Positions 20,216 through 48,205 of a stretch of 54,732 nt of DNA are shown here, in pieces (within the stretch, counting starts at the first letter, position 1; each line of letters starts with the position of its first letter). Position numbers and translations under genes: made by a program. The notes below the pieces were generated by a model that saw nothing but the letters and a program-made list of their open reading frames with translations, was not told the DNA's origin and made no database searches. This DNA comes from Prorocentrum cordatum (Eukaryota). The stretch lies in contig CAUYUJ010000221.1 of NCBI GenBank assembly GCA_963575745.1, forward strand, positions 62,001 through 116,732. The letters are read 5' to 3'.

Positions 20216-20320
20216 TCAACTACAATGCTGGGATCAGCGCGTGCCAGAAGGGCGAGCAGTGGTGGGCGGCCATGTCGCTGCTCAGCGAGATGCGTCAGGC
20301 GAAATTGGAGCCCGACATTA
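20216..20320 (+). pseudogene. Single PPR unit, exactly 105 bp
   Basis: NYNAGISACQKGEQWWAAMSLLSEMRQAKLEPDI followed by TC at 20321. The upstream CTAG is not preserved. Confidence 0.85.
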
Positions 20321-24483: not shown

Positions 24484-24664
24484 CAGTCGGGGCGCTGAAG
24501 AAGGAACCCTTTGCGTTGGGGAGGGGCTCCGTGTTCCTTAATAGCTTCGCAGTTGGCCTTTGGTTTTCCTTAGGTTTGCTATGGGAAATCGAAGCTTAAC
24601 TCATGGAAGAAGAGGGAGGGGCCTCGTTCCTTATTTAGGATTCCTTAAGTCAACGCCAAGACTG
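24484..24664. mobile_element. TA-flanked CAGTC...GACTG MITE nested in a family T MITE (24447 to ~24800)
   Basis: TA|CAGTCGGGGCGCTGA...TCAACGCCAAGACTG|TA. Removing it restores the family T body seen at 414 and 53148. Confidence 0.7.
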
Positions 24665-26011: not shown

Positions 26012-26039
26012 AGCAGCAGCAGCAGCAGCAGCAGCGGCA

Positions 26040-26096
<57 letters not shown>

Positions 26097-26097
26097 A
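26012..26097. repeat. (CAG)n microsatellite in a CAG-rich tract
   Basis: Direct reading; similar degenerate tracts at ~19850-19990 and ~37080-37175. Confidence 0.9.
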
Positions 26098-26383
26098 GTG
26101 GCAGCACACGGCAGCAGCAAACAGCAGCATGCAGCGGGCAGCAGCAAGCACAATGCGGAGCTCGCCATCAGCAGCACCCAGCAGCCACAAGCAGCACCAG
26201 CACGCAACAGCGGCAAACAGTACCAGCAGTACAAAGCAACGGCACCAAGCGTCAGCACGCAGTAGCACGCGGGGAAAGCAACGTTCGAGCCCCACGTCAT
26301 TATTTCAGCATGTGGGCAGCATGTCCACCAACACACGCCAGCTCGTGCAAATTTCGTGGACGGAGTCCACGGGTCAGCCCTAG

Positions 26384-27342: not shown

Positions 27343-27447
27343 TCAGTTACAACGCTGGGATCAGCGCGTGCGTGACGGGCGAGCAGTGGCAGCTGGCCCT
27401 GTCGTTGTTCAGCGAGACGTGGGCTGCGAAGCTGGAGCCCGATGTCA
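27343..27447 (+). pseudogene. Single PPR unit, exactly 105 bp
   Basis: SYNAGISACVTGEQWQLALSLFSETWAAKLEPDV, between CTAG and TC. Confidence 0.9.
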
Positions 27448-28991
27448 TCTACCCTGCAACGCGGGGGGAGCCGCGTGCCAGAAGGAACATTCTTTGAGTG
27501 GTCAGAACTGGCCCCTGCTGGCCCCGGCGCGCTCCAGGCACCCCCGTGGGTCTCCAAGACGGCCCAAGAGGGCCCTAAGGCGGTCCGAGATGGCCCGAAA
27601 CGCTTCATATGGCTTCCAGACGGCCCAGCAGGGCCGCAAGGGTGCCCAAACGGGCTACAAGAGGCTTCCCCAAAAGTGCACCGAGAGTCCCAAACCTGTC
27701 ATTTTTCTCGTCTTTTGGAAAGGTTTTAGCGTTCTCACCTTTTTGGATTTTCGACGCTGCAAGACAGCCCAAGAGGTCCCAGAGAGGCCCCAGGATACAC
27801 CCAAAACCGCCTGCAAGAGTCTTCCTAGGGAACATGCCTTTAGAGAGCTCTGGGACCGCGCCGGCCACCCAGGAAACCATGGCGCCCATGCTCCTTTTAT
27901 TTTCCCCCTTCTTTGGATACAGCCAGGCCGAGGTACATGACCGAGGCCGACTTGGGGAGGGTACCCTCGTATTCTTCGTGCCTGTCGGATGCTCTTGTGG
28001 CCCATGGGGGAGGGCACCCTCGGATATTCTGTGCGTTTGGGCCGGCGGAGGGCCTCGCGATCTCGAGGGGTGCTCCTCTGGCCCGGGCCCGACTGCAGGG
28101 GAGCCGTGCCCGGGTGTGCCCCGGGCAGAGCGGCGTGCTCCGCAGTGCCCTCGAGCTCCCCTGATTAGGGGCGCGTCCTCCGACCTCGGGCGGCCACGGC
28201 CGCCACGGAGCATCGCTGGAACACAGGGCGCGCGTGCAGTAAGACCGAGGTCTCAGATCGAGGTCGGTTCGGGGAGGGTCTGCCGCCGTCCTTCGTGCTC
28301 GTGGGGCGTTCTTGTGCAGCCTGGGGAGGGCACCCTTGGATGTCCTGTGCGTTTTGACTGGCCCCAATTAGTGCTTTGCGCGGCCCGCCTAGCTCCTAAC
28401 TGGAAGAGGCTCGCTCTCGACCCGCAGACCAGAAAAGTGTTTTGACTGGCGGAAGGTCTCATGTCCTTGAGGCATGTTCTTCTGGCCTAGGTCCGACCGT
28501 ACCTCTGCCTCTTGATTTCCAGCCTTGGCCCTGATACGACCTCAGGGCGGCTAAAGGTCATCCTGGGGTGGCCCCAAACGCCCCCATCCCCCCCGAAGGC
28601 AAGGCAACAGCACGCAGTGGCATTCGCGGGATTCGAAGTTCGAGCCCCACGTCACCATGCCAGCCTTTCGGCATCATGTCCACCACCACGTGCCATTTCG
28701 CGCAAATTCTCATGGAACCAACATCGCAGAGCGGATTTCGTTCGGAAAACAGTGGGATGGGCCCAGACTGTCCTGGAGAATTGTTCGTTCCGGATTTCGG
28801 AGTGAGTTTCGTGCGGATTTGTTTTCGCCAGGAATGAAGATTGCAAACAATCCACGTGAAATTAACTTCGTTTTTCGCTCGCTGTTCCTGGGCTTTGCAT
28901 TGACAGAAAGCCGCGCCCAAATCCGCTGCAGCACGTCTTCAAGGTCCGTGCAGTGACACTTTCGTGGGCGGGGTCCACGGGTCAGCCCTAG
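27448..28991 (+). mobile_element. Non-autonomous Helitron-like element (1544 bp)
   Basis: GTCA^TCTACCCTGCAACGCGGGGGGAGCCGCGTGCCAGAAGG 5' end; CGTGGGC-GGG-GTCCACG GGTCAGCC CTAG 3' end. Confidence 0.75.
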
Positions 28992-30149
28992 CCTCGGCCT
29001 GCATGGCCGCGGGAAGCGTGCGCCAGAAGGGAGCGGGCCCGACAGGACGAACTGCGTCCTGGCTGGCCCTGGCGCGCTCCCGGGCGGTCTGGGGACGCCC
29101 CCGGGCGCTTCCAGAGAGCACCCAGAGGGCCCAAGACGGTCCAAGATAGCCCGAGACGCCGCCAGACGGTCCAAGAGGTCGCCAACATGGCCTTCAGACG
29201 GCCCAGCAGGGCCCCAAGGCGGCCACCGAGGCCCCCCTGGCCCCGAGAGGTCAAGATCGTTGTTGATTTTTCTCGGTCGGTTTTTCATTGACTTTGGCAG
29301 TCTCTCCTTGGGCTTCCGACGCTCCAAGACGGCCCAAGAGGCTTCGAACATCGCCCCAAGACAGCCCAACATGCTCCCAAGGCTCAAAGAGGCCCCCCAC
29401 GAGGGCCCCGAGAGGCCAAATTCGTTAATTTCCTGATCGAGTTTTCCCGAATGTTGGCGGTCTCGCCTGTTCTGTATGGAACGAGCTCGGCCTTTCGTTC
29501 CATCGCACACATTCGCTGGCCCGAGGGATGCGCGGCTGACGTAGGCGCGAACAGCGCCGCGTCGCCGCACTGTCCGCGCGCGTCGCGGCGCGCCGCAGGC
29601 GACGTGGGCAGGTCCCCGCCACTCCGCGTGGTGCCCGCACCCGCCGCGGCGCTGCGGAGGTTCATGGACAGGACGGGGTGCGTGCACCCCGCGCTCGGCA
29701 TTCGAGCGCTGGGTGTGCGCGCGCGCGCCCGCCGGCGCCCCGCGCTTGTTGCTTCGCTTGCTGCTTGCCCTTGCGCCCTGCGCTGCCGCGTGCCTGCTCC
29801 GCGCGCGCACGCGCCGGCGGTCGCCGCGCCGCGTCGCCCTCCTGCGCAGGTTCCGATTCCCCCTCTCCTGCGCGCGCCGCCGTCTTCGTGCGCAGGTTCC
29901 TCTGCCCCTTCTGCCCGTCCAACACGTGCCGTTGGGCTCGCAGGCCAAGATTGCTTCGTGGCCATTCGGCGCAACATCTCGCGGCGAAAGCTGCCGCGCA
30001 TCTACTTTGTCCCCGCGACGCATCCGTTCCAGCTTCGCGCGCGCTCGACCGAGCGCGGTTTGGGGTCATCCGCGCCGCGTCCGAGCGTGGATCGCGTGCG
30101 AACGACCGCGCGAAGTTCTTTTCGAACGCGCTCTTGGCGCGTAGGCGCA

Positions 30150-30700
30150 GGCGACCCAGACAAGGGTGCCCCGGGGTTGGGCTACCCGCGCTAGGGGGCC
30201 CCAGCGGTGCTACAACTGCGCCGGCGTCTGAGCGACCCGAACACGTTTGACCCAGTAGCGCGACCAACGCGCTACATGCAGGCGGCCCGAACAAAAGCGA
30301 CCTGGCGTTGGGCTGCCCGCACTGGGGAGCCCCGGCGGTGCTATATATGCACCGGCATCTGGGCTACCCGAGCCAGGGCGACCCAGCAGCGCGATCATTG
30401 CGCTGCATGCAGGCGACCCGAACAAGGTCGACCTGGCGTTGGGTTACCCGCGCTAGGGATTCCCAGCGGTGCTACACATGCTCCGGCCTCTGGGCGACCC
30501 GATCACGGTCGACCCAGTAGCGCGACCAACGCGATACATACAGGCGACCCGAACAAGGGGTACCTGTTGTTGGGCTACCCGCGCTACGGATTCCCAACGG
30601 TGCGACAAATCCACCAGCGTCTGGGCTACCCGACCAAGGGCGGCCCAGCAGTGCGACGACCCGAACATGGTCGACCTGCGGTTGGGTTGCCCGCGCTAGG
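30150..30700. repeat. ~130-bp minisatellite, ~5 copies
   Basis: GTTGGGYTRCCCGCGCTAGGG recurs at ~30176, 30307, 30438, 30569 and 30681. Confidence 0.85.
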
Positions 30701-30704
30701 GAGT

Positions 30705-31230
30705 CCGCTACGACGTCAGCGCCACGTCCGAGCGAGGATCGCGAGCGATCGCGGTGACGTTTGCGCCGCGTCCGAACGAGGATGCGAGCGAGCGACCGAA
30801 CAGGGTCCGCTACGACGTCAGCGCCGCATCCCAGCGAGGATCGCGAGCGAACGACCGAACGAGGCTCGACATTGCGCTTGCGCCGCAGCCGAACGAGGAT
30901 CGCGCGCGACCGACCGAACGAGGTCCACGCATAGCGTCTGCGCCGCATCCGAACCAGGATCGCGAGCGAACGAGCGAACGAGGTCCGCTTCAACGCCTGA
31001 GCCGCATCCCAACAAGGGCCGCGAGCGAACGAACGAACGAGGTCGGACCTCGAGGTCTGCGCCGCATCGTTCGAACGTGGTTCGCGCGCGAGCGACTCGA
31101 CGAGGTCGGTTTCGAAGTTTGCGCCGCGCCCGTCCGCGCTGGGATCGCGGGCGAACGATGGAATGAGGTCGCTCTGGGTTCTGTGCTGCTTCCAACGCGA
31201 TTCGCGAACGAGCGACCGAACGAGGCCCCA
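30705..31230. repeat. ~50-60-bp minisatellite
   Basis: CCGAACGAGGATCGCGAGCGAACGACCGAACGAGG-type units. Confidence 0.8.
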
Positions 31231-32039
31231 ATCGGATCTCACCGCGGCGAGGGGCCCATCTTTTTCTGCCCCATGCCGGCGCTGGTTCGCGAGTGCACGC
31301 GTGCGCATTCCGCGCGCGCCGACGGAGCTCGTCCGCGAACTGACGACCCTGCATGCGTTCTTGCCCTCGGTCAACGCTCGCAAGGCGCGGGCGAGGACTG
31401 CGTCCGCGACGTAGTCGCAGCATTCCGCGCCAAGTCGTCCGCGGCGGGTTGCGAGCGCATCGTCGGCCTGAGCGCTCCACGTCGCGCGCGCCAGGTCGAG
31501 CGGGACCCAGTGGGGCTCGACATTCACGCGGGTGCTTTTACGGGGGCAGGTCCCATCGGAGGAGATGTCGCCTTTCTTGGCCGCGCGGTCAAGATGGGGG
31601 CGACGAGCGCCGCGAGGGCCGAGGCGGCGGCCATGTCCGCCGCCCTCTGCGTTGGCAAGGCGGCGGTGGAGCGACCGATCCCGCGACCGCCCTCGTGGAT
31701 GCGTTGGCGCGCAGGCCCGCCGCGCGCGTTGGCGTCGGCAGCTGCCTGAGCACGATTCGCCTCGCCAGGCTGCCGCCGTCCTGCTGGCCATCGCCGGCGC
31801 CCTGCGATTGGCGCGGCAGCCGGGCGCGCGCGCGGGGGCGCCCGCGTGGCGGCCGCGCGAGGCGCGCGCCCGATCGGCGCAGGCAAAGGCGGCTCAGGCG
31901 AGAATGATTTCAACGCTTCTCATCCATGAAGACGCGAAGAAGCGGCCGCCCGCTGGGCGGTCAAGAAGCGCGGTGGTCAGGGCGGAGTCGACGCATGCGA
32001 AGATGGCCCGGGCCGCTCTCGCTCGATTCCGAGCGGCGC

Positions 32040-32330
32040 AGCCTAATCGTCAGGCATGTCGCTCATGGCGTGGGCTGCTGCGTGCGACAGGTGGGCCCTG
32101 GCCGCGTCCTTCGCGGGCCGGATTAGCCTGGTGGCAGCAGTGGCGCGCAGAGACATATTGCGCTTCAGGCGTCCTTTGCCGCGCGGCCGCCGCGGGCCCT
32201 TGCTCGCGCGCTGGGCGGCCAGGCACGAAGGGTGCGCGAGGCCGCAGCACTTGCGATTGTCTACGACGGCCTGGCCAGGCGAGAGTGGTCCGACCGCGCT
32301 GGCGGCGCCAGTTGCCCTGTCGGCGATCGC
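32040..32330 (+). pseudogene. Gag-like ORF relic of the YR retrotransposon
   Basis: SLMAWAAACDRWALAASFAGRISLVAAVARRD, then (frameshift) LAIVYDGLARREWSDRA; positioned upstream of the RT. Confidence 0.45.
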
Positions 32331-33249
32331 GCCGCGCGGCAGCGAGCGCAGGGCCTGCGCGCGCGCCGAGCGCGAATATTCAGAGCCCCCGATGGGGGGG
32401 GGGCTCCAGAAGCGGCCCCCAGGGTGACCGCGCGGGCAAGGGGGGGGCCAAGTCCTTCCTCTTCAGCGAACGACGCCAAAGAGGGGGGCCGGTCCCGGGA
32501 GCCTCGGGGCGCGGCCAAGGGCGAGGGCCAGCGCGATACCGAGACGGACGCGCCGCAGCCGCGCGCGCGCGCCAATGCGGGAGCGCGAGGGCCGAGGCGC
32601 GCGCGTCGGGAGGTCTGCCAAGCCGCGCGCGCGCGGGCTGTGCGCTCAGGCAGATCGGCCTCGCTGAAGTCGTCAGCTGAATCCGCGTCGGCGATTGGCG
32701 AGGGGCGACAAGGCGTTGTCCGCTTGGGTAACGACGTCGCGGCATTGTCAGTCCGCGCGGCGCCAGCTGGGCAACGGCAGTCGCGCTTAAGCCAGGCTCC
32801 GCGGGCCTCGCCCACGCGCGTGTCTGTCGGGCCCGGCAGTGTCCCCGCGAGTGTATTTTGCGCACAGCAAGCGCGCGGCCACCTCGCGACGCGCCCGCGG
32901 CGCGCGGCAAGTGCGCGTTTGCCAAGTCTGATGCGACTAGTGCAGATGATTCGGCGAGCCAGTGGCTCCCGCGTTTTAGAGAACCGAGCAGTTTCATTGG
33001 GTGGATGGGAAAGGGTGAGATCTGAAATGCCGTTTCGATTGCTTTCCGAGGCTTGGATCTTCAAAAGGTAAATCACAAGACGGATTGATTTTCGAGGTGC
33101 AAAAGCCCACATGGATTTCACCCTGAGCCCTCCCCCGGAAGAAAATTCCCAGGATGATTGCCGTCCCGCGCCGAGGCGCGGCGGCTGCAGGCGCGCTCGC
33201 GCCCCGCCGGGTGCGTTTCGTCGCAGGGTGAGGGCAATTCGAAGCTCGA

Positions 33250-35270
33250 CTTCGTCATCTGCGTCGCGGCAGATTACGCTTTGTTGTTTTCGGATAACAC
33301 GCCCCTCCCCGACGAGCTCCGTACTTGCGTTGATTGGGCCAAATCGCGAAGCTGTCAGCTGGCGCGTGCGCTGCGCGACCCGCGCGCGCGCGATCTCGCG
33401 AGTCGCGGCGCTTGGGGGCTCAGAGGCGCTGGCTCGACGGCGTGGGCGCTGCGACCACAGCTGCCCTCTCCGAGGTCGAAGGGCCGACTATTGGCGCCGT
33501 TGCGGCCGAGCTCGGTTTCTCCGACGACGTCGAGCGCTTGTTTCGCGAGGGGGCGCCGTTCGTGGGCGCGCTGCCCGCCTCCGGCACTGACGGGCGTCGA
33601 CGGGCGTCGCGCGGCGCGCGAAGGGCGCGGAGTGCGCGAGCTCCTGGGCGACTTGCCGGGCCGCGCGGAAGCGCAGAACGCGGCTCTAATCGCGAGCCTC
33701 CGCGACGACGCCCGCGCCGCCGAGCTGCGCGCTGGCGCGGTAGCAGACGCCGAATGCACGCGGATGACGTAGCCAGTGCCAGTGGGCAGTCAGGCGCCGC
33801 ATGATAATATTCTGGCGCCTCGCTTCTCAGTGGAGCAGGGGCGCAAGCCGAATGGCCCCGCGCAGGCGACCGCGACGCGCGCGGTGGCGCTAGCCAGACA
33901 TGGCGCCACGACGCCATCGATCAGCTTGCTGCGCAAACTTGCGCGGGCTTTTCACGAGAAGGCACCGCGCGCGCGGTCGCCCGCGCGTCGCGACGCGTCC
34001 TGTCTGGGTGCGCGCGGGCAAGTTTCAATGGTAATTGAGTTCTGGAAAGTTCACGAGAAGGCGCCGCGCGCGCGGTCGCCCGCGCGTCGCGACGCGTCCT
34101 GTCTGGGCGCGCGCGCAAGTTTCAATGGTAATTGAGTTCTGGAGAGCTGACGTGGGCGCAGCCTTCCGACGGGTGGCGATCCAGCCCAGGCATCGCGCTG
34201 TCGCTTGGTCGGTCGCGCCACGGCCTGCCAGCGCATCGCGCTGCCGTTCGGCGGCTTGGCCTGCGCGCGCGGCTTGGAGCGCGCGTGCTCGTTCCCGGCG
34301 GCCGCGGCGCGTAAACTGCTGCGGCTGCCAGAATGTCGACGGTTTTCTTAAGTCGACAGGGGCTCGCGGAGCACGCAGACCAATGTTTCGCGAGGCTAGT
34401 GCGCGCCCTCCGCGGGCCCAGCGCCGTGCAGGACCGCGAGATGGCATAGGGCCAGTCCATTGTGATTCTTGGGCTGCAGGCGCTGGCTTCGGAGTCGGGC
34501 TTCCACGTGTAACCGGGCGGGGACGAGGCCAGGCTGTGGACCGATGTCATCAATGGCTCCCTGCTTTCGGGTGCGGTCACAGTCGGGGAGGCGTCAAATA
34601 TGGCAGGGCGCCTGTCGCGGGCGTCCTGCCGCATGTTCGAATGTGCCGTGCGTTCATTGGCGTGGCCGCTCTTCGACCAGTCGTTCAGCGCCTCGCCCCG
34701 CCTCGCGGACCGCGCGGGGCTCGCGCTGCGCTGGTGGGGGGGCCTGCTGGCGCGGGGCATCGCCCGCGCGCGGCCCTGGAGATGCGACGCCCGCCCGCGC
34801 TTGCGCTGGCGGATGCCCTCGGCCGCCCGCCGCGGCCGGCGGCGATTCTAATTGCCGGCGACGCATTCGAGAGGGCCGAGATGGCCCCCCCAGTTGATTC
34901 TCTCCGGCGCCCGCCCGCCGGCCCGCGACGACAGTTCGGCGCGCGCGTCTCGAGTCGGCTCAGCGGATTGCTGTGCCGGAACGACCGCCAGATCGCGGCT
35001 CTGGAAATGCTGGCGCAGTGCGCGGCGCTGACTACGTGGGCGCACGCGATGCAAGGGCGCCGAGTTGCATTCCATTCGGAAACATGCGGTTGCTGAGGGA
35101 ACCTTCCGGAAAGGCGCCTAACGGACGATGCTCGGGCGGCTGGGCGCCAAACGCGTTCGCGCTCAGATGCCGCGGGCATTCCGCTGCGGGCGCGCCGAGA
35201 ACGCGCGGCCGGCCGCCTAATCGCGCCATCGCTGAGCGCGACCGGGCGTGCCTCCCGAAGCGCGGGGTCC
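33250..35270 (+). pseudogene. Reverse transcriptase-RNase H relic (DIRS-type)
   Basis: LFREGAPFVGALPASG, PRFSVEQGRKPNG, FW(K/R)ADVGAAFRRVAIQPRHR, QIAALEMLA...LTTW...QGRRVAFHSE, then AVAEGTFRKG; stops and frameshifts. Confidence 0.75.
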
Positions 35271-38029
35271 ACGGTGGCAATCGGCGGGCCGGGCGTGCGC
35301 GCGCCCTGTTCAGGGCAGTCTATACTCTGCGCGCCACTCGGCACAGTTGCCAATCAGCAGGCGGGCGGGCGTCTTGCGCGATGCCATTCGTCGTTGCGCC
35401 ATGCCGCCATTTCGCCCGAACGGTTCTGGGGCGCCGGGGCGCCGAGTGCCAAGCCAGCGCGTCGGTTGCGCGTGCGCGCCAACTGCCGCGGCAAAGGGGC
35501 AGGGGGGCAGACGCCCGCCTCGCCTGAGTCGCCGCGGTCGGGGGGCCCGCGCGCGCGCGGCGGCCGCGCGCGCCGCCGCGTCCGACAACTCGGACAGCTC
35601 GCGCAGAAGTTCTGGCGTGTCGAACAGCTGGGGCCGCCGCCCGCGCGCCCAGCGCCGGCCGCGTCGTTGCAGTGGGTCGCGGTGCGACCGGCGCCGAGGC
35701 CGGCCGAGGCGCCCGCGCCCTCTCGGCGCGGCGCCCGCGCCGCGGGGCGCGGCGCAGGCTTCGGCGCGCGCCCGGCGCTGTGGTCCAGAGCAACCCTGCG
35801 ATGGGGGAGCGGGGCCCCCGGGAGATTTACGTGCGCGGAACTAGCTCGGCCCTTCGCACCATCGCTCATGTTCGCTGGCCCCGGGGATGCGCGGCGGACC
35901 TGGGCGCAAACGGCGCCGCGTCGCCGCGCTGCCCGCGCGCGTCGCGGCGCGCCGCGGCCGGCGCGGGTAGGTCCGCGCCCTTCCGCGCGGTGTCCGCGCC
36001 CGCCGCGGCGCCGCGAAGGTTCGTGGACAGGGCGTGGGGCGCGCGCCCCGCGAGCGGGTTTGACCCGCCCGAGCCCGCCCCGTCTTCGCCCGTTGCTGGG
36101 TCGCGCTGCGACCGGCGCCGCGGCCGCCCGAGGCGCCCGCGCCCTCTCGGCGCGGCGCAGGCTCTGGCGCGCGCCCGACAATGCGGTTGCGAGCGCAACC
36201 CAGCGACGGGCGAGCGGGTGCTCAGGGAATTTGCGGGGCATCCGACGCTCCGAGACGGCCCGAGAGGCCCCGAATCGCCCCAAGACGACCCCACGCGCTC
36301 CCAGCAGGGCCCCCAGACAGCCCAAGAGGGCCCGAAGACGGCCCGATAGGCGCCCAAGGCGGCCGAACAGGTCCCCAAGAGGTCCCCAAGAGGGGGAACT
36401 CGAGCAGGCATGCCGCGCCCTCAGCCCCAATGATGCCCCCGAGACCGCCAGCAGGCCCCCAAGCTCCAGGAGATTGCCAAGAGGCCCAAATCAGGCCCCA
36501 AAGAGGCCCATGGAGGCCCCCAAACATCACCCAAACCGCCTCGAAGAGGCTTCCGAAGGAAGATCCCGTAGAGAGCTCTGAGACCGCGCCAGCCACCCAA
36601 GAGAGCTCCATGAACGACCCAAGAGGAGCCCAGACACCCAGCCAAACGCACGCCGAGGCCATTGGGGCACGCGGGTGCTGGCCCCTTCTCATGCTTCCCT
36701 TCTCGCTCCGTGCTCCTCGCTCCTCGCTCCTCGCTCATCCCAGTTCTCTCCTCGACCCCCGCCTCCCTTTGCAGTCCCGAAACGGTGCGGTGACGCACCG
36801 TGCGGTGACCTCGAAATCCCCCAAGACCTCACCGCACGGTCCGTCACCGCACGGTCTTGGGACCCCGGAGGCCCCTGTCGCCCGAAACGTCTTCGGAGAA
36901 CGACCCGAGTCCCAAGACCGTGCGGTGACCCCGAATCCCCACCGACTCACCGCACGGTGTGGTCACCGCACCGTTTGGGGGCCCCCGGCTCCCCCTCCCC
37001 GTCATCTCCGCCCTCGACCCTGATTCCTCGTTCCTTGCTCTTCGCTGCAGGTTGCGTCATCTGGCAATGGCACCGAGAAGCAGCACTCTGCAGCCTCAAG
37101 CAGCAACAGCGATTACCAACAGTCTGCAACAGGCAATGGCAGTACAACAAAAGAAAGCTGCAGGCAGCAACAGCAGAGGCGAAACTCGGGCCCCAAATCA
37201 TCACGAAACTCTTTTGGCAACATCTCTGCCTTGTTCCAACGTGCAAGCTCAGACAGCTTTCGTGGCCGGTAGGCCACCGGTCAGCCCTAGTCTCTTCTAC
37301 AATGCAGCGCGATCTTTGCGTGCGAGGTCCCCCGTCCAGAAACACCGCCCGGGTCCCCCAGGGCATCCTGCGAGTCTTCCGGGCGCTCCGAGACGGCTCC
37401 GTGGGGTCCCAGAATGCACCAAGACGGCCCCCAAACGGCCCCAAGACGGCTTAGAGACGCTCAGAGGTGCCCAGACGACCCGAGAGGACCCCCAGCGAGC
37501 CCCAGGATAGCCCCAGAGGCCTCCAAGGCAGGCCAGGAGGCTCCCGAAACGGCCCAGGAGGTCCCCCAGGAGAGCCCCTCGAGGCAAAAATCGTTCATTC
37601 CTGTTGGAAAGCGTTTGATGTTCCTATGTCCTTTCGTTTCGTTTGCACAGTTTCCAAGACGGCTGTACAGGCTCCCAAGGTCGCCCGCGGACGCCCCCAG
37701 GAGGGCCCCAAAACGGTCCGATACGGCCCTGGGACGGCTCCAGAGACGCCCAAGGCGGCCTAAGAGGCACCCAAGACAGCCCCAAGAGCGCCCAATAATG
37801 GCTCAAGGTGGCCCCAAGACGGCCCCAAGATGGCACGAGAGGCGCCCAAGACGGCCCCAGATCGACCCAAGACGGCCCGAGAGGCACCCAAGACGGCCCA
37901 AGAGGGTCCCGAGAGACCCCCAGGAGGACGTAAAGAGGCCTCAAACGGTCCCCAAGAGGCCTTGGATGTTTGTTTCTTGCGGAGCATCGACGACCGACGA
38001 TCGAAGATCGACGGGATGCTGATCGAGGG

Positions 38030-38480
38030 GAAGAGGAGGAGGAGGAGGAGGAGGAGGAGGAGGAGGAGGAGGAGGAGGAGGAGGAGGAGGAGGAGGAGGA
38101 CGAGGAGGACGAGGAGGACGAGGAGGACGAGGAGTAGGACCAGTGTAAACCCAAGAGTCATCAACGATTTTGGAATTTACCCTCCCTCCAAGCTCCTTAT
38201 TTATAGGCCCCTACAACTGTTCATTTCCGTTGAGGGAACTGCCTCGTTGGAAGACAGCTGCTTGAAGACCCCGAAGCACACCAACACATTGTTCTCGGGA
38301 TTACAACGCCACGCTTCAACCTGACTGCTGCGTCTTGAAGACCCGGAGTCGAGCCATAACGCCACTTTTGGGACTTCAACACCGCGAACCAACATAATTG
38401 TTTCACCCGCATGATCCTGTATCCTTCCGAAGCACCATTTCTTGCACGGTGGTCATGGGATTCCGTGAAACTCATGTTTT
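38030..38480 (-). mobile_element. Truncated LINE-like 3' end with (CCT)n tail
   Basis: 38139 to ~38395 is homologous to 54466 to ~54720, and both abut a GAG tract at the same point. Minus strand has decayed ORF2-end-like motifs (WFAVLKSQKWRYG, QVEAWR). Confidence 0.6.
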
Positions 38481-38975
38481 TCAAACGACTGTGCGCGGCG
38501 CTAAGGCGAGTGCCACTTTTTGAAAACCATCCGCCCTGAATCCGTGAAGGTCTTGCAAGTTCTTTGGAAGAATGTGCGCGGCGCTAAGGCCAGAGCCACA
38601 TTTTGAAAAGGAACCGCCCTCCTTCCGCGAAACTCTTGCAAACTGTACATCGAATGTGCGCGGCGCTAAGGCCAGAGCCACATGTTGAAAACCACCTGCT
38701 TTCAATCCGCGAAATTCTTGCAACTTTTTGAAGCGAATGTGCGCGGCGCCACGGCGAGAGCCACATTTTGAAAACCACCCGACCTCAATCCGCGAAATTC
38801 CTACAACTTTTTGAAGCGAATGTGCGCGGCGCCAAGGCGAGAGCCACATTTTGAAAACCACCCGCCCTGAATCCATGAAACTTTTGCGAATGTTTGCAAC
38901 GACTGTGCGCTGCGCCAAGGCGAGAGCCACATTTTGAAAACGACCCGCCCTCCATCTGTGAAGCTGTTGCCGTTT
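38480..38975. repeat. ~83-bp minisatellite, ~6 copies
   Basis: GCCACATTTTGAAAACC recurs at ~38512, 38596, 38676, 38760, 38843 and 38926. Confidence 0.9.
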
Positions 38976-39547
38976 TTAAGCTTCAGGGGCATACATGGTG
39001 AGGACGTCTCGGGCGAAGCGCCTGGCCCGCCCCGCAAAAATTGACCTCGGGGTGCGAAAGGGAGAAGCTATTAATGAGGAAAAAATCATAGAAGAGGAGG
39101 AGGAGGAGGAGGAGGAGGAGGAGGAGGAGGAGGAGAAGGAGAAGGAGAAGGAAGAGGTCCCAAATGGCCCCCAAAGCCGATAGAAGCCACCGAGATGTTC
39201 CAAGCATGACCCGAAGGATGCTCCAAGAGGGTCCAGACACACCGGGACGGCTCCTAACAAAGATCGACGGGATGAAGGATCCAGGGCTGGCCGAGGGGGG
39301 CGCCCCAAATGGCCCAAAAGCCGGTAGGAGCCACAGAGATGTCCGGACCAAGCCCCGAAGAGGGCCCTAAGAGTGTCCAGACACCCCGAGAAGGCTCCTA
39401 ACGCTCAGCCCAAGCAAACCAAACGGACAGTGACTCCAGCGCCCTATCGGTGATCCTCCCGTGCACTGGGCGCCGGAGCGGCCCCAGTGCGGAGTCCACA
39501 CCACTGCGGGCAGATTCCGCGGCCGGCAGGCCGCGGGTCAGCCCCAG

Positions 39548-41108
39548 TCTCTCCTACATGGCCGGTGGAAGCGCGCGCGAGAGGCCCAGGGCCTCAAGTG
39601 GACAAAATCGCTCCTTTTCGGCGCCACCACGGGGCCGAATCGCTCAGGCCGGTCCCAGAGGCGCTCCAGAGGGGTTCCCAGACCGTCCAAGAGCGCTCCA
39701 AGACGGCGTCAGTGGGTCCCGAGGCGGCCCACGAGGGCCCGAAGTCTTGGGGTCTCCGCGACGATCCAAGAGGCCGCAAAGACGCCCCAAGAGGGCCCCG
39801 AGCGCACGCCAAAGAGGCACAAATCGTCAAATTCTAATAGGAGAACGTATATTAATCGCTTCGCTCATTCCGCCGGCCCGTATTGTGCCCTCGCTGGCGT
39901 TTAGGCTTTTGGGGGCCTTTTGGGGTCCTCGTTGGGGGTTTCTTGGGGGCCTCTTGGGTTTCTGTTGGAGCCTCTTAGGGGTTTCTTGGAGCTCCTTTGG
40001 GAGCATTTGGTAGCATCTTGGAGCTCCTGGGCGCCGCTTGGGAGCATCTTGGGGCTTTTGCGGGGGTCTGGCGGGTCTCTTGGGGGCCTCCCGGGACCGA
40101 ATCGCTCAGGCCGGTCCCAGAGGCGCTCCAGAGAGGTTCCCAGACCGTCCAAGAGCGCTCCAAGATGGCCTCAGTGGGTCCCGAGGAGGCCCACAAGGGC
40201 CCGAAGCCTTGGGGGGGGGGGTTCTGCGACGATCCAAGAGGCCGCAAAGACGCCCCAAGAGGGCCCCGAGCGCACGCCAAAGAGGTACAAATCGTCAAAT
40301 TCTCATCGGAATACGTATATTTTCGGCATGCCCGCCTTGTGTGCTCCTCAGCGGCTCAGGACACGCCAAGAGGCCTCCCAAAATGCCGCAAGAAGACGCC
40401 AGCGGCCCCTAAGAGGGCTCCAAGACGGCCCACAAGAGCTCCAAGACGACGCCAGAGAGCCCTGAAACGGCCTCACAGAACCCCCAAGACGGCCCCAAGA
40501 GAGCTTCGAGGGGGCCCCAAGAGGCTCCCAAGACGGCCTCAGGCAGCCTCAAGAGAGCTCCAAGACGGTCCAAGGCCTCCCGGACGCCGCGTGACGGCCC
40601 CAAATGGCCCCAAGACGTCAACAAAAACATTCCCAGAGCAGCCCCCAAAAGCTTCAGAATGGCCCGAAAAAGACCCCCACAAGGATCACCAAGCAGGCCC
40701 AGAGACGCCCATTAAAAGATCGATCGGTGAAGTACAAAGCGCTTCTCACCAAGGCTCCCAAGAGCGAGCCGCAGCGTAGAGAGCTCTCCCAGGCACAGCT
40801 CCCAAGAGCGAGCGGTGACGTGACCAGCCCTTCACACAGGGGCTCTCAAAAGCGAAGGGCGCCATGAGCCATCTCGGGCCTGCGAGCGTGCGCCCGCCGT
40901 CACGCTTCACCCAGGCAACTGGGAAGAACTCACTACAGCTTTCCGGGCGTTCCCCGCCCACGGATCCCCGCCGCACTCAGAGCGCTGCCCTTCTCCGTGG
41001 GTGCGGGTGCGAGTGCGCGAAGGTATGCGCGTATGGCACGGAGCCGCGCCGTGGAGGCTCACCAAGGGGACCTGAAGGTCGTGGACGAAGTCCACGGGTT
41101 CGCCCTAG
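39548..41108 (+). mobile_element. Non-autonomous Helitron-like element (1561 bp)
   Basis: 5' TCTCTCCTACATGGCCGG...; internal ~200-bp duplication (~39635-39835 / ~40097-40303); 3' CGTGGAC-GAA-GTCCACG GGTTCGCC CTAG. Confidence 0.75.
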
Positions 41109-42303
41109 TCTATACTACAATACTGGGACCCGTGCGTGCGAGAAGGGCCTGGGGATCAATCGGGTCACCCGGGCGGAAAGGGAGGCCCGGAGAGCCCCCG
41201 GAGAGCCCCAGACGGCCCCAAGACGGCCTCAGACGGCCCCCAGTCGCCCGAAGATCGCCCCACGCCGCCCAAGATGGCCCCAAGCGGGTCCAAGAAGCCT
41301 CCAAGACGTCCCAAGAGTCCTTTTGGCCGATTCCCGGGAGAACCCACAGAGCCCAAATTCGTCAATTTCTTATGGGAAACGTATATTTCAAGCACATGCG
41401 GCTGTTCGGCCTTCACCGTGTCGACGATGGCCCACGAGACCCCCAAGACCGCCCCAAGACGGCCCAAGACGCTCCCAAGAGACCCTCAAAACGGTCCAAG
41501 AAGGTGCCAAGACGGCCCAAGGGGCAATCAAGACGGCCACTGAGGGCTCCAGGACGGCCCCCCAGCTGGCTCCAAGACGGGCTCAGACGGCCCCCAGTCG
41601 CCCGAAGATCGCCCCAGGCCGCCCAAGATGGCCCCACGACGGTCCACGAAGCTTCGAAGACGTTCCCAAAGGGTGCCCATGGAGCCCAAATTTGTTAATT
41701 TCCTATGGGGAAACGTGCATTTCTGGCATGCGGGGCTGTTCGGCCTTCAGGGCGTGGACGACGGTCCACGAGGCTCCCAAGACAGCCCCAGGATGGCCCA
41801 AGAAGCTCCCAAGAAGTCCCCAAAACGACCCAAGAAGGCGCCAAGACGGCCCAAGAGGCGCCCAAGACGGCCCAAGAGAGCCCAAGACGCCCCCCCCGTA
41901 TGGCCTCAAGACAGCCTCCGACGGCCCCAGTCGCCCGAAGATCGCCCCAAGCCGCCCAAGATGACGCCAAGCCGACCCACGAAGCCTTCAAGACGATGAC
42001 AGAGGCCTCCAAGCGGACTCCCACGAGGACCCCCAGACGCCACACTCGTCAAGTTCCTATAAGGAAGCGTACATTTTAAGCATGTGCGGCTTTCCTGTCT
42101 TCACGGCAATGACGACGGCCCACGAGGCCCCCAAGACCGCCCCAAGACGGCCCCAGAAGTTCCCAAGAGGCTCGCAGAACGATCCCAGAGGACGCCAAGA
42201 CTGCTCAAGAGGCGTCCAAGACGGCCCAACAGGGCGCCAAGACGGCCCAAGAGGGCGCCAGGGCGAGCAAATTCCGCGGCCTGAGGCCGCGGGTCAGCCC
42301 TAG
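41109..42303 (+). mobile_element. Complete non-autonomous Helitron-like element (1195 bp)
   Basis: 5' TCTATACTACAATACTGGGACCCGTGCGTGCGAGAAGGG; 3' CCGCGGCC-TGA-GGCCGCGG GTCAGCC CTAG^TCAGCTAC. Confidence 0.82.
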
Positions 42304-42618
42304 TCAGCTACAGCGCTGGGATCAGCGCGTGCGAGAAGGGCGAGCAGTGGCAAGGAGCTCTGTCGCTGCTGCGCGCGATGCGCGAGGGAGGAGTCCTTGC
42401 CGACGTCGTCAGCCTCAACGCTGGGATGAGCGCGTGTGTGTCAGGCGGGCCGTGGCAGCAGGCCCTGCTCCTGTTCGGCGAGCTGCAGCGGAGCAGGCTG
42501 GAGCCCGACGCCGTCAGCTACGTCGCCGGGATCGGCGCGTGCGGGCGGGGCGCGCAGTGGCAGCTGGCCCTGTCGCTTCTCGCCGAGATGCCGCGGGCGA
42601 AGCTGGAGCCGGAGGTCA
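42304..42618 (+). pseudogene. PPR block, 3 x 105 bp, open frame
   Basis: SYSAGISACEKGEQWQGALSLLRAMREGGVLADVV-SLNAGMSACVSGGPWQQALLLFGELQRSRLEPDAV-SYVAGIGACGRGAQWQLALSLLAEMPRAKLEPEV. Confidence 0.88.
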
Positions 42619-43072
42619 CCTGCGCCCCTCCTCCTCCTCCTCCTCCTCCTCGTCCATTCTTCTCCTCCTCCTCCTCCTCAGCATCACCTTTCTTCTCCTC
42701 CTCCTCCTCCTCCTCCTCAGTGCCCTGGAGCCGCGCGCGCCAGTGGGTCAGCCGTGGCGGGGCCCAGGGGGAGGGGCCGGCGGGGGGGGGAGGCCCTGGG
42801 CGCTGGCCTCGCCGCCCCTGGCCGCCCGCCGCGGCCCCCGCCCGGCTTCTTGGGGCGGCTGCGGCAGCGCCCCGGATGTCGGCCTCGCTCGGACGTGCGC
42901 ACGTGCCCTCGGCGAGGAGTAAGTCGGGCCTGTCCCTCTACAGGAGGAGTATTCAAACATGGTAGCAATATATGGTCCCGGGCTCGGGACCCACGGGCCC
43001 CCCCCCCTCCCCCCAGATGGTATGGTCCCAGGATTCCTCGGGCCCCCCCCCCCAAGATGGTATGGTCCCAGA

Positions 43073-43500
<428 letters not shown>

Positions 43501-43949
43501 CTCTGAACCACCACAGCACCGCACCACATCCACAGGGGGGGGGAGGGGGGCACCGCAGCGCAGCACCACGCCACGCCCACCATTGAACCACCACAGCACC
43601 ACACCACATCCACAGGGGGGGGGGAGGGGGGCACCGCAGCGCAGCACCACGCCACGCCCACAGGGGGGGGGCGGGGGGGACCATCGCCCGGGGGGGGGGC
43701 CCAGTGGCATCAGCATTGGGGGGGGGGGGCCCAAGCCCTGGACCATATGTAGAACGGCACGTGCATCGCGTGCGCGGCGCAGCACCTGGACACGGAGGCT
43801 GCGTGGCGGGAGGAAGCCGCCAGAGCAGCCGCCAGAGCAGGCATGCAGCTCGCTGACCGGAAGCGCGCGGTTTGGGCCCGAGGCGCGGATGCTGGGCGAT
43901 GGCGGCAGCGCGGGTTGACGTCCTGCCGGTGCTCGCTCGCCGCGGGGCG

Positions 43950-44570
43950 GCATGGCCTGGGCGCGTCGTGGGCCAGCCTCGGTGAGGACGGAGATGTTGC
44001 GCGGGCTTGGGCCCGGACGGCCATGGGAACAATCGCGCGAGAGTTGCAGGTGCTACAGGAAGCCGGGCTGCCGAAACAGTGCGCTCAGGCTTTGCTCCGC
44101 TCGCGGTCGGCTTCTGTCCCTCGGCGCGTGTCGCGCGGGGCGCTGGTCAGTGATGCCGCCCTGCGAGGTTTAGAAACCGCGCTCGAGGATTGACGGGCGC
44201 GCGCGCTCGGTGCAGATGCCCCCGCGCCTCATCGACGCACGCGGTTGCATTTGCCACTTGGGATGGGCGGCTTGGCTGCTGGGGGCTCGCGAGTCCGTGC
44301 GGCAGCAGCCTATTTGGCGTGCGCTTGCCAGACGCATCACCATGTGGCGCGGACGCTGGGCATCGCGCGCCGCCCATGCGCTCGCCCGCAGAAGAGGCAG
44401 CCTCGCGCCTTCAGAGCCTCGTTGTGGCAGAGCCCCTCCGAAGTTTGATGCGCGGCGGAGCGCGCAATGCGAGGGCGCCCAGCGCGGATGGGTGCGCGCC
44501 GCCCAGGCCACTTTGCAGCAGGAGTTGTTCTCGCATGCCCAGGCTAATCAGATCCTTGGCATGCGATGGG
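43950..44570 (+). pseudogene. CRE/RLE-type non-LTR retrotransposon fragment (post-RT region)
   Basis: GLPKQCAQALLR, then HLPLGMGGLAAGGSRVRAAAAYLA, resembling the LP..GGLG...A..A motif of CRE-like elements. Confidence 0.5.
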
Positions 44571-45098
44571 GCAGCGGCAAGCGTGCTCCAGCCTTACCCA
44601 TGCCTCCGCGGTTGACTGCGGGCAGGGTGGCCTCCTCCTGCTCCTCCTCCTCATCCTCCCTCTCCTCCTCCTCCTCCTCCTCCTCCTCCTCCTCCTCCTC
44701 CTCCTCCTCCTCCTCCTCCTCCTCCGCCCGCCGAGTGCCAAGGCAGCCCAAGACAGCCCCAAGACGGCTCAAGCCAGCCTCGAGTGGCCCCCAATGGCAG
44801 CCCCCAAAAGGCAGCCCCAAAAGGGCTCGGGGACTGCCGAAGGGAGCCCAGAGCGCGCTCTCCGACGGCCCTGGACTCCCAGCATGGCTCCAAGATGGCC
44901 AAGGAGCTCCCCAAGACATTCCAAGAGGGGCCCCAAGTTGCCCCAAAGGGGTTCAAGAGGCCCCAGGAAGGCCCTCAATTAGGAGACTCTGAAAGAGTCC
45001 CCGAAGATCCGACAGGCAGCACGTCCCAAAGTTCCCAAACACCCCCTTGCACAGATGCCCCCAGGAGGCCTCGAACACGCCACACAACAGCACCTCCG

Positions 45099-45141
45099 TC
45101 AGCTACACCGCTGGGATCAGCGCGTGCGAGAATGGCGAGCA
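45099..45141 (+). pseudogene. Partial PPR unit
   Basis: TCAGCTACACCGCTGGGATCAGCGCGTGCGAGAATGGCGAGC = SYTAGISACENGE. Confidence 0.7.
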
Positions 45142-45684
45142 AGCGACCTAGGAGGAGACCAAGTGTTCGGCCACGCGCCCGCCGAGTCCATTGGGAGACC
45201 CGTGTGCTCGTCTCTCTTCAACCCTTTCTCCTCCCTGCTCGTTCCAAGCTTCTCGCTCCTCGCCCATTGCCATTGCCATTGCTCCTCGCTCCTCTCTCCT
45301 AGCGCCTTGCTCATTTCCCTTCACTACTCTTCGTTCCTGTTTCGTGGCCCCTGCAACCTTCCGCACCGGCAGAGCCTCTCACGGCCTCGGAGTGGCCCGA
45401 CGTGCCTCGAGGTCAGCCCCCCCCCCCACCCCCCCACAGAATTGCTTCACTGCGCCCCTGAGCAGCAAGCGGCAGTAAGCGGCAGCGGGCGGAGGAGCAC
45501 GCAGCGAAGCGAGCTACGAGTTGCAGGCCATTCGGCCAGCAACTTCGCTGGCAGGAATGCAGGCACGACGTCAAACAGACAAGCGATCCTCGCCCTGGCA
45601 TGTGAGTAAACTTTCGTGCCCGCCAGAAGCATCGTGATCAGATCTTGCCGCTTGCGGTGGACACAGTCCACGGGTCAGCCTTAG

Positions 45685-46020
45685 TCAGCTACAGCGCTGG
45701 GGTCAGCGCGTGCGAGAGAGGCCGGCAGTGGCAACGGGCTCTTTTGCTTCTGAGCGAGATGAGGGAGGCAAAGTTGGCGCCCGACATCATTAGCTACAGC
45801 GCTGGGATCAGTGCGTGCGGGAACGAGCAGTGGCAGCGGGCTCTAGCGCTGCTCAGCGACATGTGGGCGGCGGAGGTCGATCCCAGCGGTGTTATTAACG
45901 CGTGCGTGAAAAACGTGCCGTGGCAGCATGCAATTCTGTTGCTCATCCAGACACGCGATGCGAAGTTGGAGGCAGACGCCGTCGGCTACAGCGCCGGGGT
46001 CAGCGCCTGCGAGAAGGCCA
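45685..46020 (+). pseudogene. PPR block, ~3.3 units with in-frame deletions
   Basis: Follows GTGGAC-ACA-GTCCAC GGGTCAGCC TTAG. Reads SYSAGVSACERGRQWQRALLLLSEMREAKLAPDII-SYSAGISACGNEQWQRAL...GYSAGVSACEK. Confidence 0.85.
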
Positions 46021-48205
46021 ACTGTGTTGGCCCAGGGAGCTGGTTTCTCACCAATTGTCTTTGCCAAGTGAGCGGCGCGGTCTCTGCGTCGAGTGCGACG
46101 TGAAAGCTCTGCTCTTCAGTTATGGACGTAGCGAGTGAGAGACAGGCGAGCAAGAAGAGCAGTCAGCAGCAACGCTGGCATCGGTGCGTGCCAGAACGGC
46201 GGGCAGGGCCACCGTGGGATACATACCTGGCGTTCGACGACATTAGCGACCACGATAGGACCAGCGTGTGCGTGGCATGCAGTTCAGTTTCCCGCTGCCC
46301 AGAACTAGCAACCTGGAGCGATGGATGACTGCAGAATTCAGACCTCAAGCGCTTGCTGGCCATTGGAGCTCCTGAAAACGCTGCTCGCCCACCAGTCCCA
46401 GTTCTGATGGCCATGATCAGCTGTGGGCCCAGCCGCGAGATGGCTGATGCGGCTGGGGGAACGCAGCGGTCGCCCGCTGGTTTCTGCCGGCGGCTGCTTT
46501 TCTGTTCGCTGCCCGGCGTGCCCGCCGTGCTGGTCCGCGTGCCGCGGCTCTCTGCCCCGACCCGAGGGCTCCGTTGACCTCGGCCCCGGTGTCGCGGAGC
46601 GCGCCGTGCCGCTGGCTGCTGGGAGGGGAGCGCACGTGGAGCAGGGGCCAACGTCGCCGCACCAAGCGGAGGTCCAGAGCCAGACCCTCCCCCCCCTTCC
46701 GCCCAGTGTCGAAACTCGGGTCGAACGAAAGGGGGGGATTGGGAAAGGGGGTGTTACGAAATTTGCTGCATGCAGCTGGTTTCGGCTTCACCGAGGGGCC
46801 CATTCCTCGATACATAGCCGCCTCCGGCGCCGGGAGGCGCCTGGAAAATCAGCTCCGTGAGCTGATTCTCAAACCCCCCTTTGCTATCCCCCCCTTCCGC
46901 CCAGTGTCGAAGCCGCTCACGTGCACCCCTCCAGCGCGCCGCCAGTCCTCCTCGCCCTCCTTCGGCGCCACCCCAACATACTTGCACTATGTGGGCGTCG
47001 CCCCCCCCCCCCCCCCAGGGGCGACGCGCGCATCTTCTAGTATGTGCGTCGTGGCGAGCGCTTTCTGGCCACACCGCTCGGGAAAAACGATACACTGCCA
47101 GATGGGTTTACTATATGTTCGGGTCGGATGCGCGCCTCCAAGGAGGACATGTTAGCATGTCTCTGTGCGTCCCACTCCTCGTCCTCCCCCCCTCCCCCCA
47201 GGGGGGGGGGGGGCGGCGCGAGGGCGCGCCGCGGAGCGCGCGCAGCTCGGCTGCTCCCGCGGTCTGGGCCGCGGGTCTCCCTCCCTCTGGTGGGGCGGCC
47301 GCGCGGGCAGTGCCACCAAGGAGGAGGGGGTGGGGGGGGGAGCTGCAGGATGGGTGGCTGGGGGCAGGGGGCGAGGGGGGAGGGGGAGGGGGGAGAGGGG
47401 GGGGGGGGGGGAGGAGGGAGGGGCGGGGGGGAGCCAGGGGAGTGGGGGGGAAAGGGGTGAGGGGGGGGGGGGGGGGATGGGGGAGGAGGGAGGGGAGTGC
47501 CACCAGGGAGGCGGGAGGGGGGGGGGAGGAGCCGGGGGTTGCAGGATGGGGTGGCCCCGAGGGGGCCCCAGGCGTCGTCGTCGCCGTCGTCGCCGTCGCC
47601 GTCGTCACGCCCGTGTTCAATCGCAGCACGTACCGTGTTCCACACGTCGGGGTTGGCCACGCTGCGTGCTGCCTCAGCGCATGTCGACCCACGCTTGGGC
47701 GGCCGCCTCTCGCCAGACCCACGTGCTCAGCCTGCGTGCCGAGCTCCGTGCCATCACGCCACGTGCTGCGTGTTGCGCATCGGGGCGGGTAGAGTCAGCC
47801 CGCTTAGTCAGGATGGGCAACCCTCCCCCTCGCATCCTCGCCTCCTCGGTCCATCCTTGGCCTCGCTCGTTTGGCCGCGCACCGCTCGGAAAGCTTCGCA
47901 AGGGGCGTGCAAGGCCCTATCTCCGCTCGGCCTCGGCCTGGGCCGCTCTCCTGGGGGGCCACAGGCGAACCCTACCCCTACCCCCTGCCATTTCTGTGGG
48001 GGAGGGTGGGGTTCCCTTCGCCTCCCCCTCAGAAGTCGTGGGGAGTATGGGGCAGGGCTCGCACGTGGCCCCCTTCTCTCCGCCACCGGTGCCCGCCCGG
48101 CCCAACGAGGCCCCCCGCAGTGCCCGCGACTCGCTCCGGGCGACCGCTTCGATGTCGCTTCCGGCGGGCCCGGTCCGACTCGGCGAGCGAATGATACGGC
48201 TGGGG

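Follow-up and report, generated by a model that had tools for sequence, protein, structure and literature searches.

Helitrons are usually described as needing an A/T dinucleotide only, and their choice of target is poorly understood. HUH transposons of the IS608 and IS91 type use single-strand HUH chemistry and carry the same or a like sequence at the donor cleavage site and at the target, an arrangement that the locus described here would share. They are bacterial, with a recognition sequence of 4 nt that IS608 reads by base pairing with its own DNA. IS608 integrates site-specifically (PMC5876387). We analysed a 54.7-kb window of the genome of the dinoflagellate Prorocentrum cordatum (contig CAUYUJ010000221.1; the window is the whole stretch of DNA that was analysed), in which an array of pentatricopeptide repeat (PPR) units is interrupted by Helitron-like elements whose left ends resemble the start of the repeat unit that they interrupt.

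The elements share their anatomy with canonical plant Helitrons. Maize HelA2 and Hel1-4 begin with TCTCTACTAC and TCTATACTAC, end in CTAG and insert between A and T without target duplication (PMC10095026, Table 3), and the first 10 nt at positions 26384 and 41109 of the window are identical to the HelA2 and the Hel1-4 terminus, respectively. Plant Helitrons also have a subterminal 3' hairpin, and head-to-tail junctions and tandem arrays are known in plants and bats (PMC5876387); all of these recur here. In contrast to plant Helitrons, all insertions seen here lie at one position of a coding repeat and in one orientation, the left end behind its 10-nt terminus continues as a copy of the target, and no autonomous partner was seen, with no RepHel or PIF1 family found by Pfam among 150 of the 163 open reading frames (ORFs) of at least 150 aa. 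The Helitrons of Paramecium telomere repeats resemble these elements in their proposed strand-specific integration into a short repeat with absolute orientation bias, in their many non-autonomous, satellite-rich copies and in right-end stem-loops with compensatory changes, but their target is a non-coding hexamer repeat, their right end is CCAA and the portion of that report available to us gives no homology between left end and target (PMC13085455), whereas here the target is a 105-nt coding repeat from which the left end probably derives. Helitron-derived introners are likewise non-autonomous Helitron-like elements that lie within genes as intervening sequence (PMC12130899), although splicing of the present elements is hypothetical and their boundaries do not fit GT/GC/GA...AG. 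Dada elements also insert sequence-specifically into highly repeated genes, but they belong to another transposase class and use tRNA and snRNA genes, not a protein-coding repeat (PMC8869645). A RepHel of another type has been reported in Symbiodinium (PMC8788227).

A non-autonomous canonical Helitron, E2, spans 41109-42303, and position 41109 marks its true left end. The motif TCTMTACTACA, with at most one mismatch, occurs five times in the window, always on the + strand, against 0.12 occurrences expected. Two extra bases in the start of a PPR unit convert TCA(G/A)CTACA into the canonical Helitron terminus TCTMTACTAC, and these two bases together with the 10-nt terminus were found at 26384, 41109, 37291, 39548 and 20214 as well as on a contig from another locus (L001). 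A 5' TC is present at 15717, 20214, 22958, 26384, 27448, 37291, 39548, 41109 and on L001. The right ends are equally characteristic. The sequence GGGTCAGCCCTAG, at up to two mismatches, gave nine matches (2.3 expected), eight of them 3' ends preceded by a hairpin and all on the + strand; six of these eight finish with CTAG, the end at 39547 has CCAG and that at 45684 has TTAG, while the corresponding ends on L001 and on a second contig, L002, are both CTAG. Alignment of all 10 ends revealed a 7-pair stem followed by a tail of 11-12 nt to the end of the element, with 95.7% of stem cells paired. Compensatory change affects two of the seven pairs (UA to CG in two sequences and AU to CG in four, six cells in all), none of 500 shuffles reached the covariation score of the stem, and folding z scores were -3.3 and -1.8. 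The hairpin of E2 folds at -19.9 kcal/mol (z -3.3), and none of 200 shuffles was as good. The tail behind the hairpin contains TCAGC (26373-26388, 42293-42308 and other 3' ends), the first five bases of a PPR unit, which gives a junction TCAGC-CCTAG-TCAGC, perhaps by chance and perhaps as further likeness to the target. None of the element ORFs matched a Pfam family, and the elements are non-autonomous.

Insertion takes place between A and T without target duplication, with ...GTCA as left flank and TCAGC... as right flank, and the uninterrupted site GTCA/TC... is present at 8547/8548 and at 922/923 of L002. Where two elements meet in tandem, the nick is preceded by G. PPR units of type SYNAGISACEKGEQW are numerous in the window and all lie on the + strand; the array spans ~8443 to 46025, with six interruptions holding ~13 elements. 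Four of the seven left breaks fall directly after ...GTCA (8652, 15716, 27447, 42618), a fifth (20320) after ATTA and the other two within a unit (10380, 46025). The array resumes at unit position 1 in all seven cases, five of them behind CTAG or TTAG, and position 42304 is the downstream half-site of the target, TCAGCTACA... The spacing from 15611 to 15717 and from 27342 to 27448 is exactly one unit (105 nt), and that from 42303 to 42619 is three units. All element ends are on the + strand, the same as the PPR frame. Elements abut 3' end to 5' end at 22957, 26383, 28991, 37290, 39547 and 41108; their unequal lengths and contents show that they did not arise as multimers of a single copy. The targeting of PPR units put forward in the sequence-only reading is thus borne out by repeated use of the unit boundary in a single orientation, and the 5' ends that it had proposed are genuine, given the canonical terminus, the 3' ends with hairpin and CTAG, insertion at A/T and recurrence at other loci.

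This recurrence comes from several sources. One metagenome scan yielded the two contigs, of which L001 carries the hairpin and CTAG followed by TCTCTACTACAATGC, and L002 the hairpin and CTAG followed by three to four PPR units. A 280-nt contig from run X2 matches 41108-41379 with 13 differences and has eight unlike bases upstream; none of the sequencing-run contigs placed on 26301-46300 covered that whole region. In run X1, 95 contigs matching from 42304 on have an ordinary PPR unit end upstream, which is the uninterrupted site at other loci. In the gene models P0002 and P0088 the 3'-end peptide is read straight into a PPR unit; the 3'-end peptide of element E3 is also found ahead of a PPR unit in protein P0002. 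A search with the peptide across the 41108/41109 junction gave one match among 13 candidates, a partial Prorocentrum cordatum product, and neither of the two candidates from a protein search with the LTS-head peptide of 26384 passed (LTS, left terminal sequence). A second type of end (B-type, ...CAC.CTAG without a convincing hairpin) adjoins PPR unit starts at three loci, namely 10087, 15611 and P0049, the last with read-through into the PPR unit. Scans with the 16-nt 3' end returned 109 genome and 5 viral contig stretches, none of which (0/114) had a PPR-profile match or the features of the family, and these were taken as chance matches.

A number of further observations were made at PPR unit boundaries. 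On L002, within a PPR array that is regular elsewhere, 50 nt (1131-1180) stand in place of a unit start, immediately ahead of a new TCAGCTACAATGC. A 321-nt contig (runs X1 and X5) is identical to 42324-42616 and then continues for 28 nt unlike the window, departing from it 2 nt before the break at 42618; it may represent an empty allele, a paralogue or a spliced RNA. In gene models the second end type appears as a read-through peptide xTLV before S/T-Y-N-A-G. P0002, P0034, P0058, P0076, P0081, P0086 and P0049 show small extra residues or a frame shift exactly at the PPR unit boundary, examples among dinoflagellate gene models being an added F, an added YYTI and whole units in a shifted frame after an LTS-like start. 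These residues are known from proteins only and could be LTS/PPR hybrids, excision footprints or annotation artefacts. Boundaries outside the regular expression numbered 32 of 104, several of them ordinary variants, which makes them a lead only.

The likeness between left end and target was measured in two ways. Aligned directly, 41109-41147 and 42304-42340 are identical in 28 of 37 columns with one 2-nt offset, and a distal block, GCGTGC.AGAAGG, is identical in 14 of 14 positions between 41134 and 42327. A DNA profile built from 11 intact PPR units and run with nhmmer against both strands of the window found, besides the real PPR units, 26386-26424 and 41115-41149 (profile positions 1-39 and 5-39; E-values in the table), both directly behind an end with hairpin and CTAG. 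The L001 left end matched profile positions 2-53 (E 1e-7), and at 20214 the LTS-type start leads into a whole PPR unit of 105 nt. Weaker sites were scored by matches to a 39-nt PPR consensus against 5000 random 41-mers from the window, true PPR units included (see table). Of the five weaker left ends nhmmer returned 39554-39602 only (E 3.2); they are credible because of their fixed place after CTAG or the PPR end GTCA, and not because of their scores.

The collinearity over ~37 nt that had been noticed from the sequence therefore stands. The 2-nt offset, put there after the initial TC, is set by the aligner at the extreme 5' end; since both sequences begin with TC, alignment cannot fix its position. 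Likeness at the other sites named in the sequence-only reading is confirmed by the profile at 26384 and is weaker, resting on position, at 27448, 28992, 37291, 39548 and 15717. That the similarity would stop after GAAGGG holds at 26384 and 41109, where homology ends at profile position 39-40, and fails on L001 (to position 53) and at 20214 (the whole unit). For the further proposal that a PPR unit could act as a 5' origin there is a candidate, 20214-20320, whose status as an element end is not secure.

The similarity might be functional. One ~37-nt sequence would then be read by the transposase at both the donor 5' end and the target and be kept alike by selection for transposition, which would explain both PPR targeting and self-insertion. 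In favour of this, the likeness is genuine and begins at the nick itself, the distal block is the best-kept part after the terminus (63% against 54% in the middle of nine LTSs), HUH transposases such as those of IS608 and IS91 cut donor and target with one active site, and the LTS of Helraiser is essential (PMC5876387). We nevertheless consider this explanation unlikely. The length of PPR homology differs from copy to copy, from a whole unit at 20214 (105 nt) through ~53 nt on L001 to ~40 nt at 26384 and 41109 (39 by the profile), and is barely recognisable elsewhere, which fits inheritance better than a fixed site. Between 26384 and 28992 the LTS (26/42) is no better kept than the body (66.7%), and across most copies the 5' end shows hardly more conservation than the rest of the element. 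The most PPR-like 5' end adjoins an intact half-site in two of three arrays, contrary to what is expected if LTSs are preferred targets; this polarity, with the most PPR-like 5' end rightmost, was seen in two arrays while the third hinges on the class of 20214, and we do not lean on it. Finally, the B-type ends (10087, 15611, P0049) use the identical PPR site, yet their sole candidate left end, at 8653 (TCTCCTCC), is unlike PPR and scores 2 when aligned to the PPR start. Targeting would accordingly seem not to depend on the long similarity, although the argument is weak because those ends lack a hairpin and the limits of the elements are uncertain.

Substitution patterns also speak to ancestry. 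Differences at codon positions 1/2/3 numbered 160/205/311 among 14 PPR units and 72/68/60 among six LTSs over the same columns; the even spread in the LTSs indicates that the stretch is free of PPR coding constraint and evolves as non-coding DNA. Conservation among nine LTSs was 65% at positions 1-11, 54% at 12-25, 63% at 26-41 and 52-58% at 42-164, compared to 48% for random 41-mers, so that of the shared positions, which the sequence-only reading had proposed to examine for excess conservation, 1-11 and 26-41 are somewhat better kept. The unit at 20216 was the best match for six of 10 LTSs, including that of L001, in preference to each LTS's own neighbouring unit, which points to a common ancestor and not to local origin. 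The long similarity looks inherited rather than maintained. Over the first ~11 nt one sequence may plausibly serve as origin and target; one recognition sequence over the whole 37 nt is not supported.

Another account would have no mobile 5' end at all, the PPR-like stretches being local PPR units that decayed behind element 3' ends. The sequence-only reading had itself raised this scenario, with variable end points and no consistent 2-nt insertion. End points of the likeness do vary, the weaker sites are individually near chance, and the PPR start at 45099 lacks the two extra bases and is 95.5% identical to nearby 42303-42346; the sequence behind it resembles 36615-36738 (69%), and global alignment is too weak to decide whether this is an element that starts with an unmodified PPR unit. 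Against decay in place, the two extra bases and the 10-nt terminus recur at the five window sites and on L001, six of 10 LTSs are closest to the 20216 unit type and not to their neighbours, the run X2 contig keeps the 41108 boundary with a different upstream flank, and 26354-26992 aligns with 41079-41673 (65%) far past the PPR-like part. We regard the scenario as largely refuted and very improbable. Two related possibilities were rejected. A long target duplication, copying PPR positions 1-40 at each insertion, is contradicted by the two extra bases and terminus shared by the left copies and is excluded by the junctions at 15717 and 27448. Read-through of a 3' end carrying PPR flank does not apply at those two junctions, where the PPR-like stretch follows GTCA with no 3' end upstream.

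Another explanation is that the elements are introners, being or lying within introns of a working PPR gene, with the head of the LTS exonised and providing a splice donor, CTAG giving the acceptor AG and the two extra bases setting the frame. The genome of Prorocentrum cordatum has introns averaging 4.7 kb, with GT (24.7%), GC (51.4%) and GA (23.8%) donors (PMC10666404), and Helitron-derived introners have been reported (PMC12130899). The PPR units that stand alone between elements have remained intact, with the highest scores of all (95.5, 94.1 and 90.4 bits). A GTGC block lies 27 nt in at 26384, 41109 and 27448 and 30 nt in at 22958, and by eye 27 nt in on L001; these multiples of 3 hold phase 1 into TC AGC TAC. 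In the gene model P0023 a PPR unit directly follows an LTS-head peptide that matches the one from 26385-26426 exactly. On the other hand, elements begin with TC and end with AG, so that in-frame removal is possible from no canonical donor, 8653 reaches a stop after five codons with no in-phase donor before it, and the GTGC block is 29 nt in at 37291, 26 nt in at 28992 and 25 nt in at 45099. The common 27-nt spacing may be plain inheritance, and P0023 is a chimeric model with an ORF like that of long interspersed nuclear elements (LINEs) and with out-of-frame PPR units. We hold this explanation to be quite unlikely. Plain spliceosomal introns with GT/GC/GA...AG at the element boundaries were rejected as well, none being in frame.

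The explanation we favour, by a modest measure, is that ~13 Helitron-like elements have inserted head to tail on the + strand at the A/TC unit boundary of one PPR gene, with a left end that consists of a PPR unit start plus two bases, descends from the PPR and is thus related to its target by descent. Since TCA(G/A)CTACA is already close to TCTCTACTACA, the start of a PPR unit naturally resembles the canonical terminus. The RepHel of the family would nick 5' of a T followed by a TC..CTAC-like sequence, and PPR unit starts, resembling that nick sequence, would serve as targets in a single orientation. The gain of two bases could then have turned a PPR start into a usable origin, from which rolling-circle transposition to the next terminator with hairpin and CTAG would have founded the family. 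The remainder of the PPR unit would have been carried along and decayed, the distal block GCGTGCGAGAAGGG being inherited baggage and not a second recognition site. One may speculate that the two extra bases are the TC left by an earlier element.

A bolder version, which we find doubtful, has a single nick-site recognition (TC..CTACA) serving the origin, the target and the 3' junction CTAG/TCAGCTACA, which would make this a homing Helitron on a coding repeat in which a PPR start plus two bases founds families. The site would be used like the origin of a rolling-circle plasmid, the downstream half-site acting as a regenerated origin that ends the round; the PPR repeat is seemingly very abundant in the host, and a PPR-like head might permit in-frame splicing.

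Several findings weigh against the explanation we favour. The elements at 28992 and 42619 begin with CC and not TC, no 3' end is recognisable at 20213 or 45098, the B-type ends are without a hairpin, and neither RepHel nor PIF1 was among the ORFs searched. The flank upstream of 20214 is neither CTAG nor GTCA, which leaves its status as an element end insecure. The modest excess of conservation at LTS positions 26-41 would allow for some constraint on the distal block. Identity between copies is only 65-70%, and neither the ages nor the order of insertions can be read from them.

Features of the PPR array and of the elements are collected in the table. The stretch 20214-20320, a candidate progenitor or hybrid form, is 85.4% identical to 26384-26424 over 41 nt (20214-20254) and aligns to the LTSs without gaps; together with 20321-22957 it may form one element. 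In addition to the alignment of E1 with E2, 28960-29413 and 26352-26819 are 66.7% identical. The body of E2 consists of three ~350-bp tandem units rich in CCAAGACGGCCC-like 12-mers (41206-41893 against 41560-42248, 75.7%).

Table. Features of the PPR array and of the Helitron-like elements; the last column gives, for the weaker left ends, matches to the 39-nt PPR consensus and, in brackets, the fraction of random 41-mers scoring as high.
Feature	Positions	Strand	Evidence	Consensus matches
Two PPR units, end GACGTCA	8443..8652	+	DNA profile	
Insertion at unit boundary; B-type CACTAG end, no convincing hairpin (z +0.7)	8653..10087	+		
2.8 PPR units; array broken within a unit at profile position 83	10088..10380	+	DNA profile	
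Interruption, B-type CGCTAG end; left edge off unit boundary	10381..15611	+		
Lone intact PPR unit, exactly 105 nt	15612..15716	+	Profile, 95.5 bits	
Element, degenerate LTS (TCCATACCAC) after GACGTCA; no recognisable 3' end	15717..20213	+		26 (0.070)
LTS-type start TCTCAACTACA with two extra bases, leading into a complete intact PPR unit	20214..20320	+	90.4 bits	
Stretch from PPR end GACATTA to hairpin then CTATAG	20321..22957	+	Hairpin z -2.0	
Element, degenerate PPR-like LTS; perfect hairpin and CTAG 3' end	22958..26383	+	22965-23002, E 0.1	
E1, 959 bp; LTS TCTCTACTAC..., hairpin and CTAG 3' end	26384..27342	+	Profile 1-39, E 6e-4	
Lone intact PPR unit, exactly 105 nt, between E1 3' end and next 5' end	27343..27447	+	94.1 bits	
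Element, degenerate LTS directly after PPR end GATGTCA; hairpin and CTAG 3' end	27448..28991	+		27 (0.020)
8.3-kb stretch between two hairpin and CTAG ends, possibly composite; 5' start CC	28992..37290	+		24 (0.043)
Element, LTS TCTCTTCTACA; 3' end hairpin then CCAG	37291..39547	+		27 (0.024)
E3, LTS TCTCTCCTACA; 3' hairpin 41080-41096, 12-nt tail ending CTAG	39548..41108	+		26 (0.019)
E2 LTS: terminus TCTATACTAC, then PPR-like stretch up to GAGAAGGG	41109..41149	+	Profile 5-39, E 5e-4	
E2, non-autonomous Helitron, 1195 bp	41109..42303	+	Ends; no Pfam family in ORFs	
E2 right terminus: 8-bp stem, 3-nt loop, 11-nt tail, CTAG end	42274..42303	+	Folding, covariation	
Three intact PPR units	42304..42618	+	PF13041, 8e-11; 77.6, 71.9, 77.7 bits	
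Interruption after GAGGTCA; starts CC; no recognisable 3' end	42619..45098	+		
PPR positions 1-43 without two extra bases, then non-PPR, then hairpin and CTTAG; status ambiguous	45099..45684	+	E 6.5e-10	
~3.3 PPR units, array end	45685..46025	+	DNA profile	

Tandem material of the CCAAGACGGCCC type, with 12-mers and ~350-bp units (the three in E2 being 76-78% alike), builds the element bodies and was observed at 41206-42248, 26488-27236, 37650-37963, 40378-40616 and 50877-51107. In runs X2 and X19 the contig depth summed over these repeats was very high, a value that does not stand for copy number. The interruption at 42619-45098 contains a CCT microsatellite and CCAAGAC-type repeats. Trinucleotide microsatellites of the CCT/GAG type occur on both strands (42619-42720, 2005-2286, 16570-16984 (-), 44630-44730 and 38025-38145 (-)), one copy lying directly at the interrupted PPR boundary 42619. 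The window has a G+C content of 63%, and that of the Prorocentrum cordatum genome is 59.7% (PMC10666404). A eukaryotic uS3 with Ribosomal_S3_C and KH_2 domains is encoded by an intron-less ORF (2486-3223, +; 246 aa) that lies ~5 kb ahead of the PPR array. No ORF in the window is longer than that at 4238-5734 (+; 499 aa), which matched no Pfam family at E 0.001. A search for an annotated protein of the PPR locus returned 109 protein matches, with a best identity of 60%, none of which is this locus.

Among the papers listed on Helitrons together with pentatricopeptide repeats or with dinoflagellates, no account of Helitrons like these was found, and neither Helitron nor pentatricopeptide occurred in what was searched of the Prorocentrum cordatum genome paper (PMC10666404). 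The locus presents a Helitron family of canonical type with base-exact, orientation-specific insertion into a protein-coding repeat and a left end visibly built from that repeat. PPR-derived left ends hint at how targets are chosen and how new Helitron families originate. If the pattern is genome-wide, it would offer a natural system for the bases 3' of the nick that are read by RepHel at origin, terminator and target, a worked example of host sequence becoming a new transposon end, and perhaps an origin for the long, repeat-filled interruptions that PPR genes of dinoflagellates contain.

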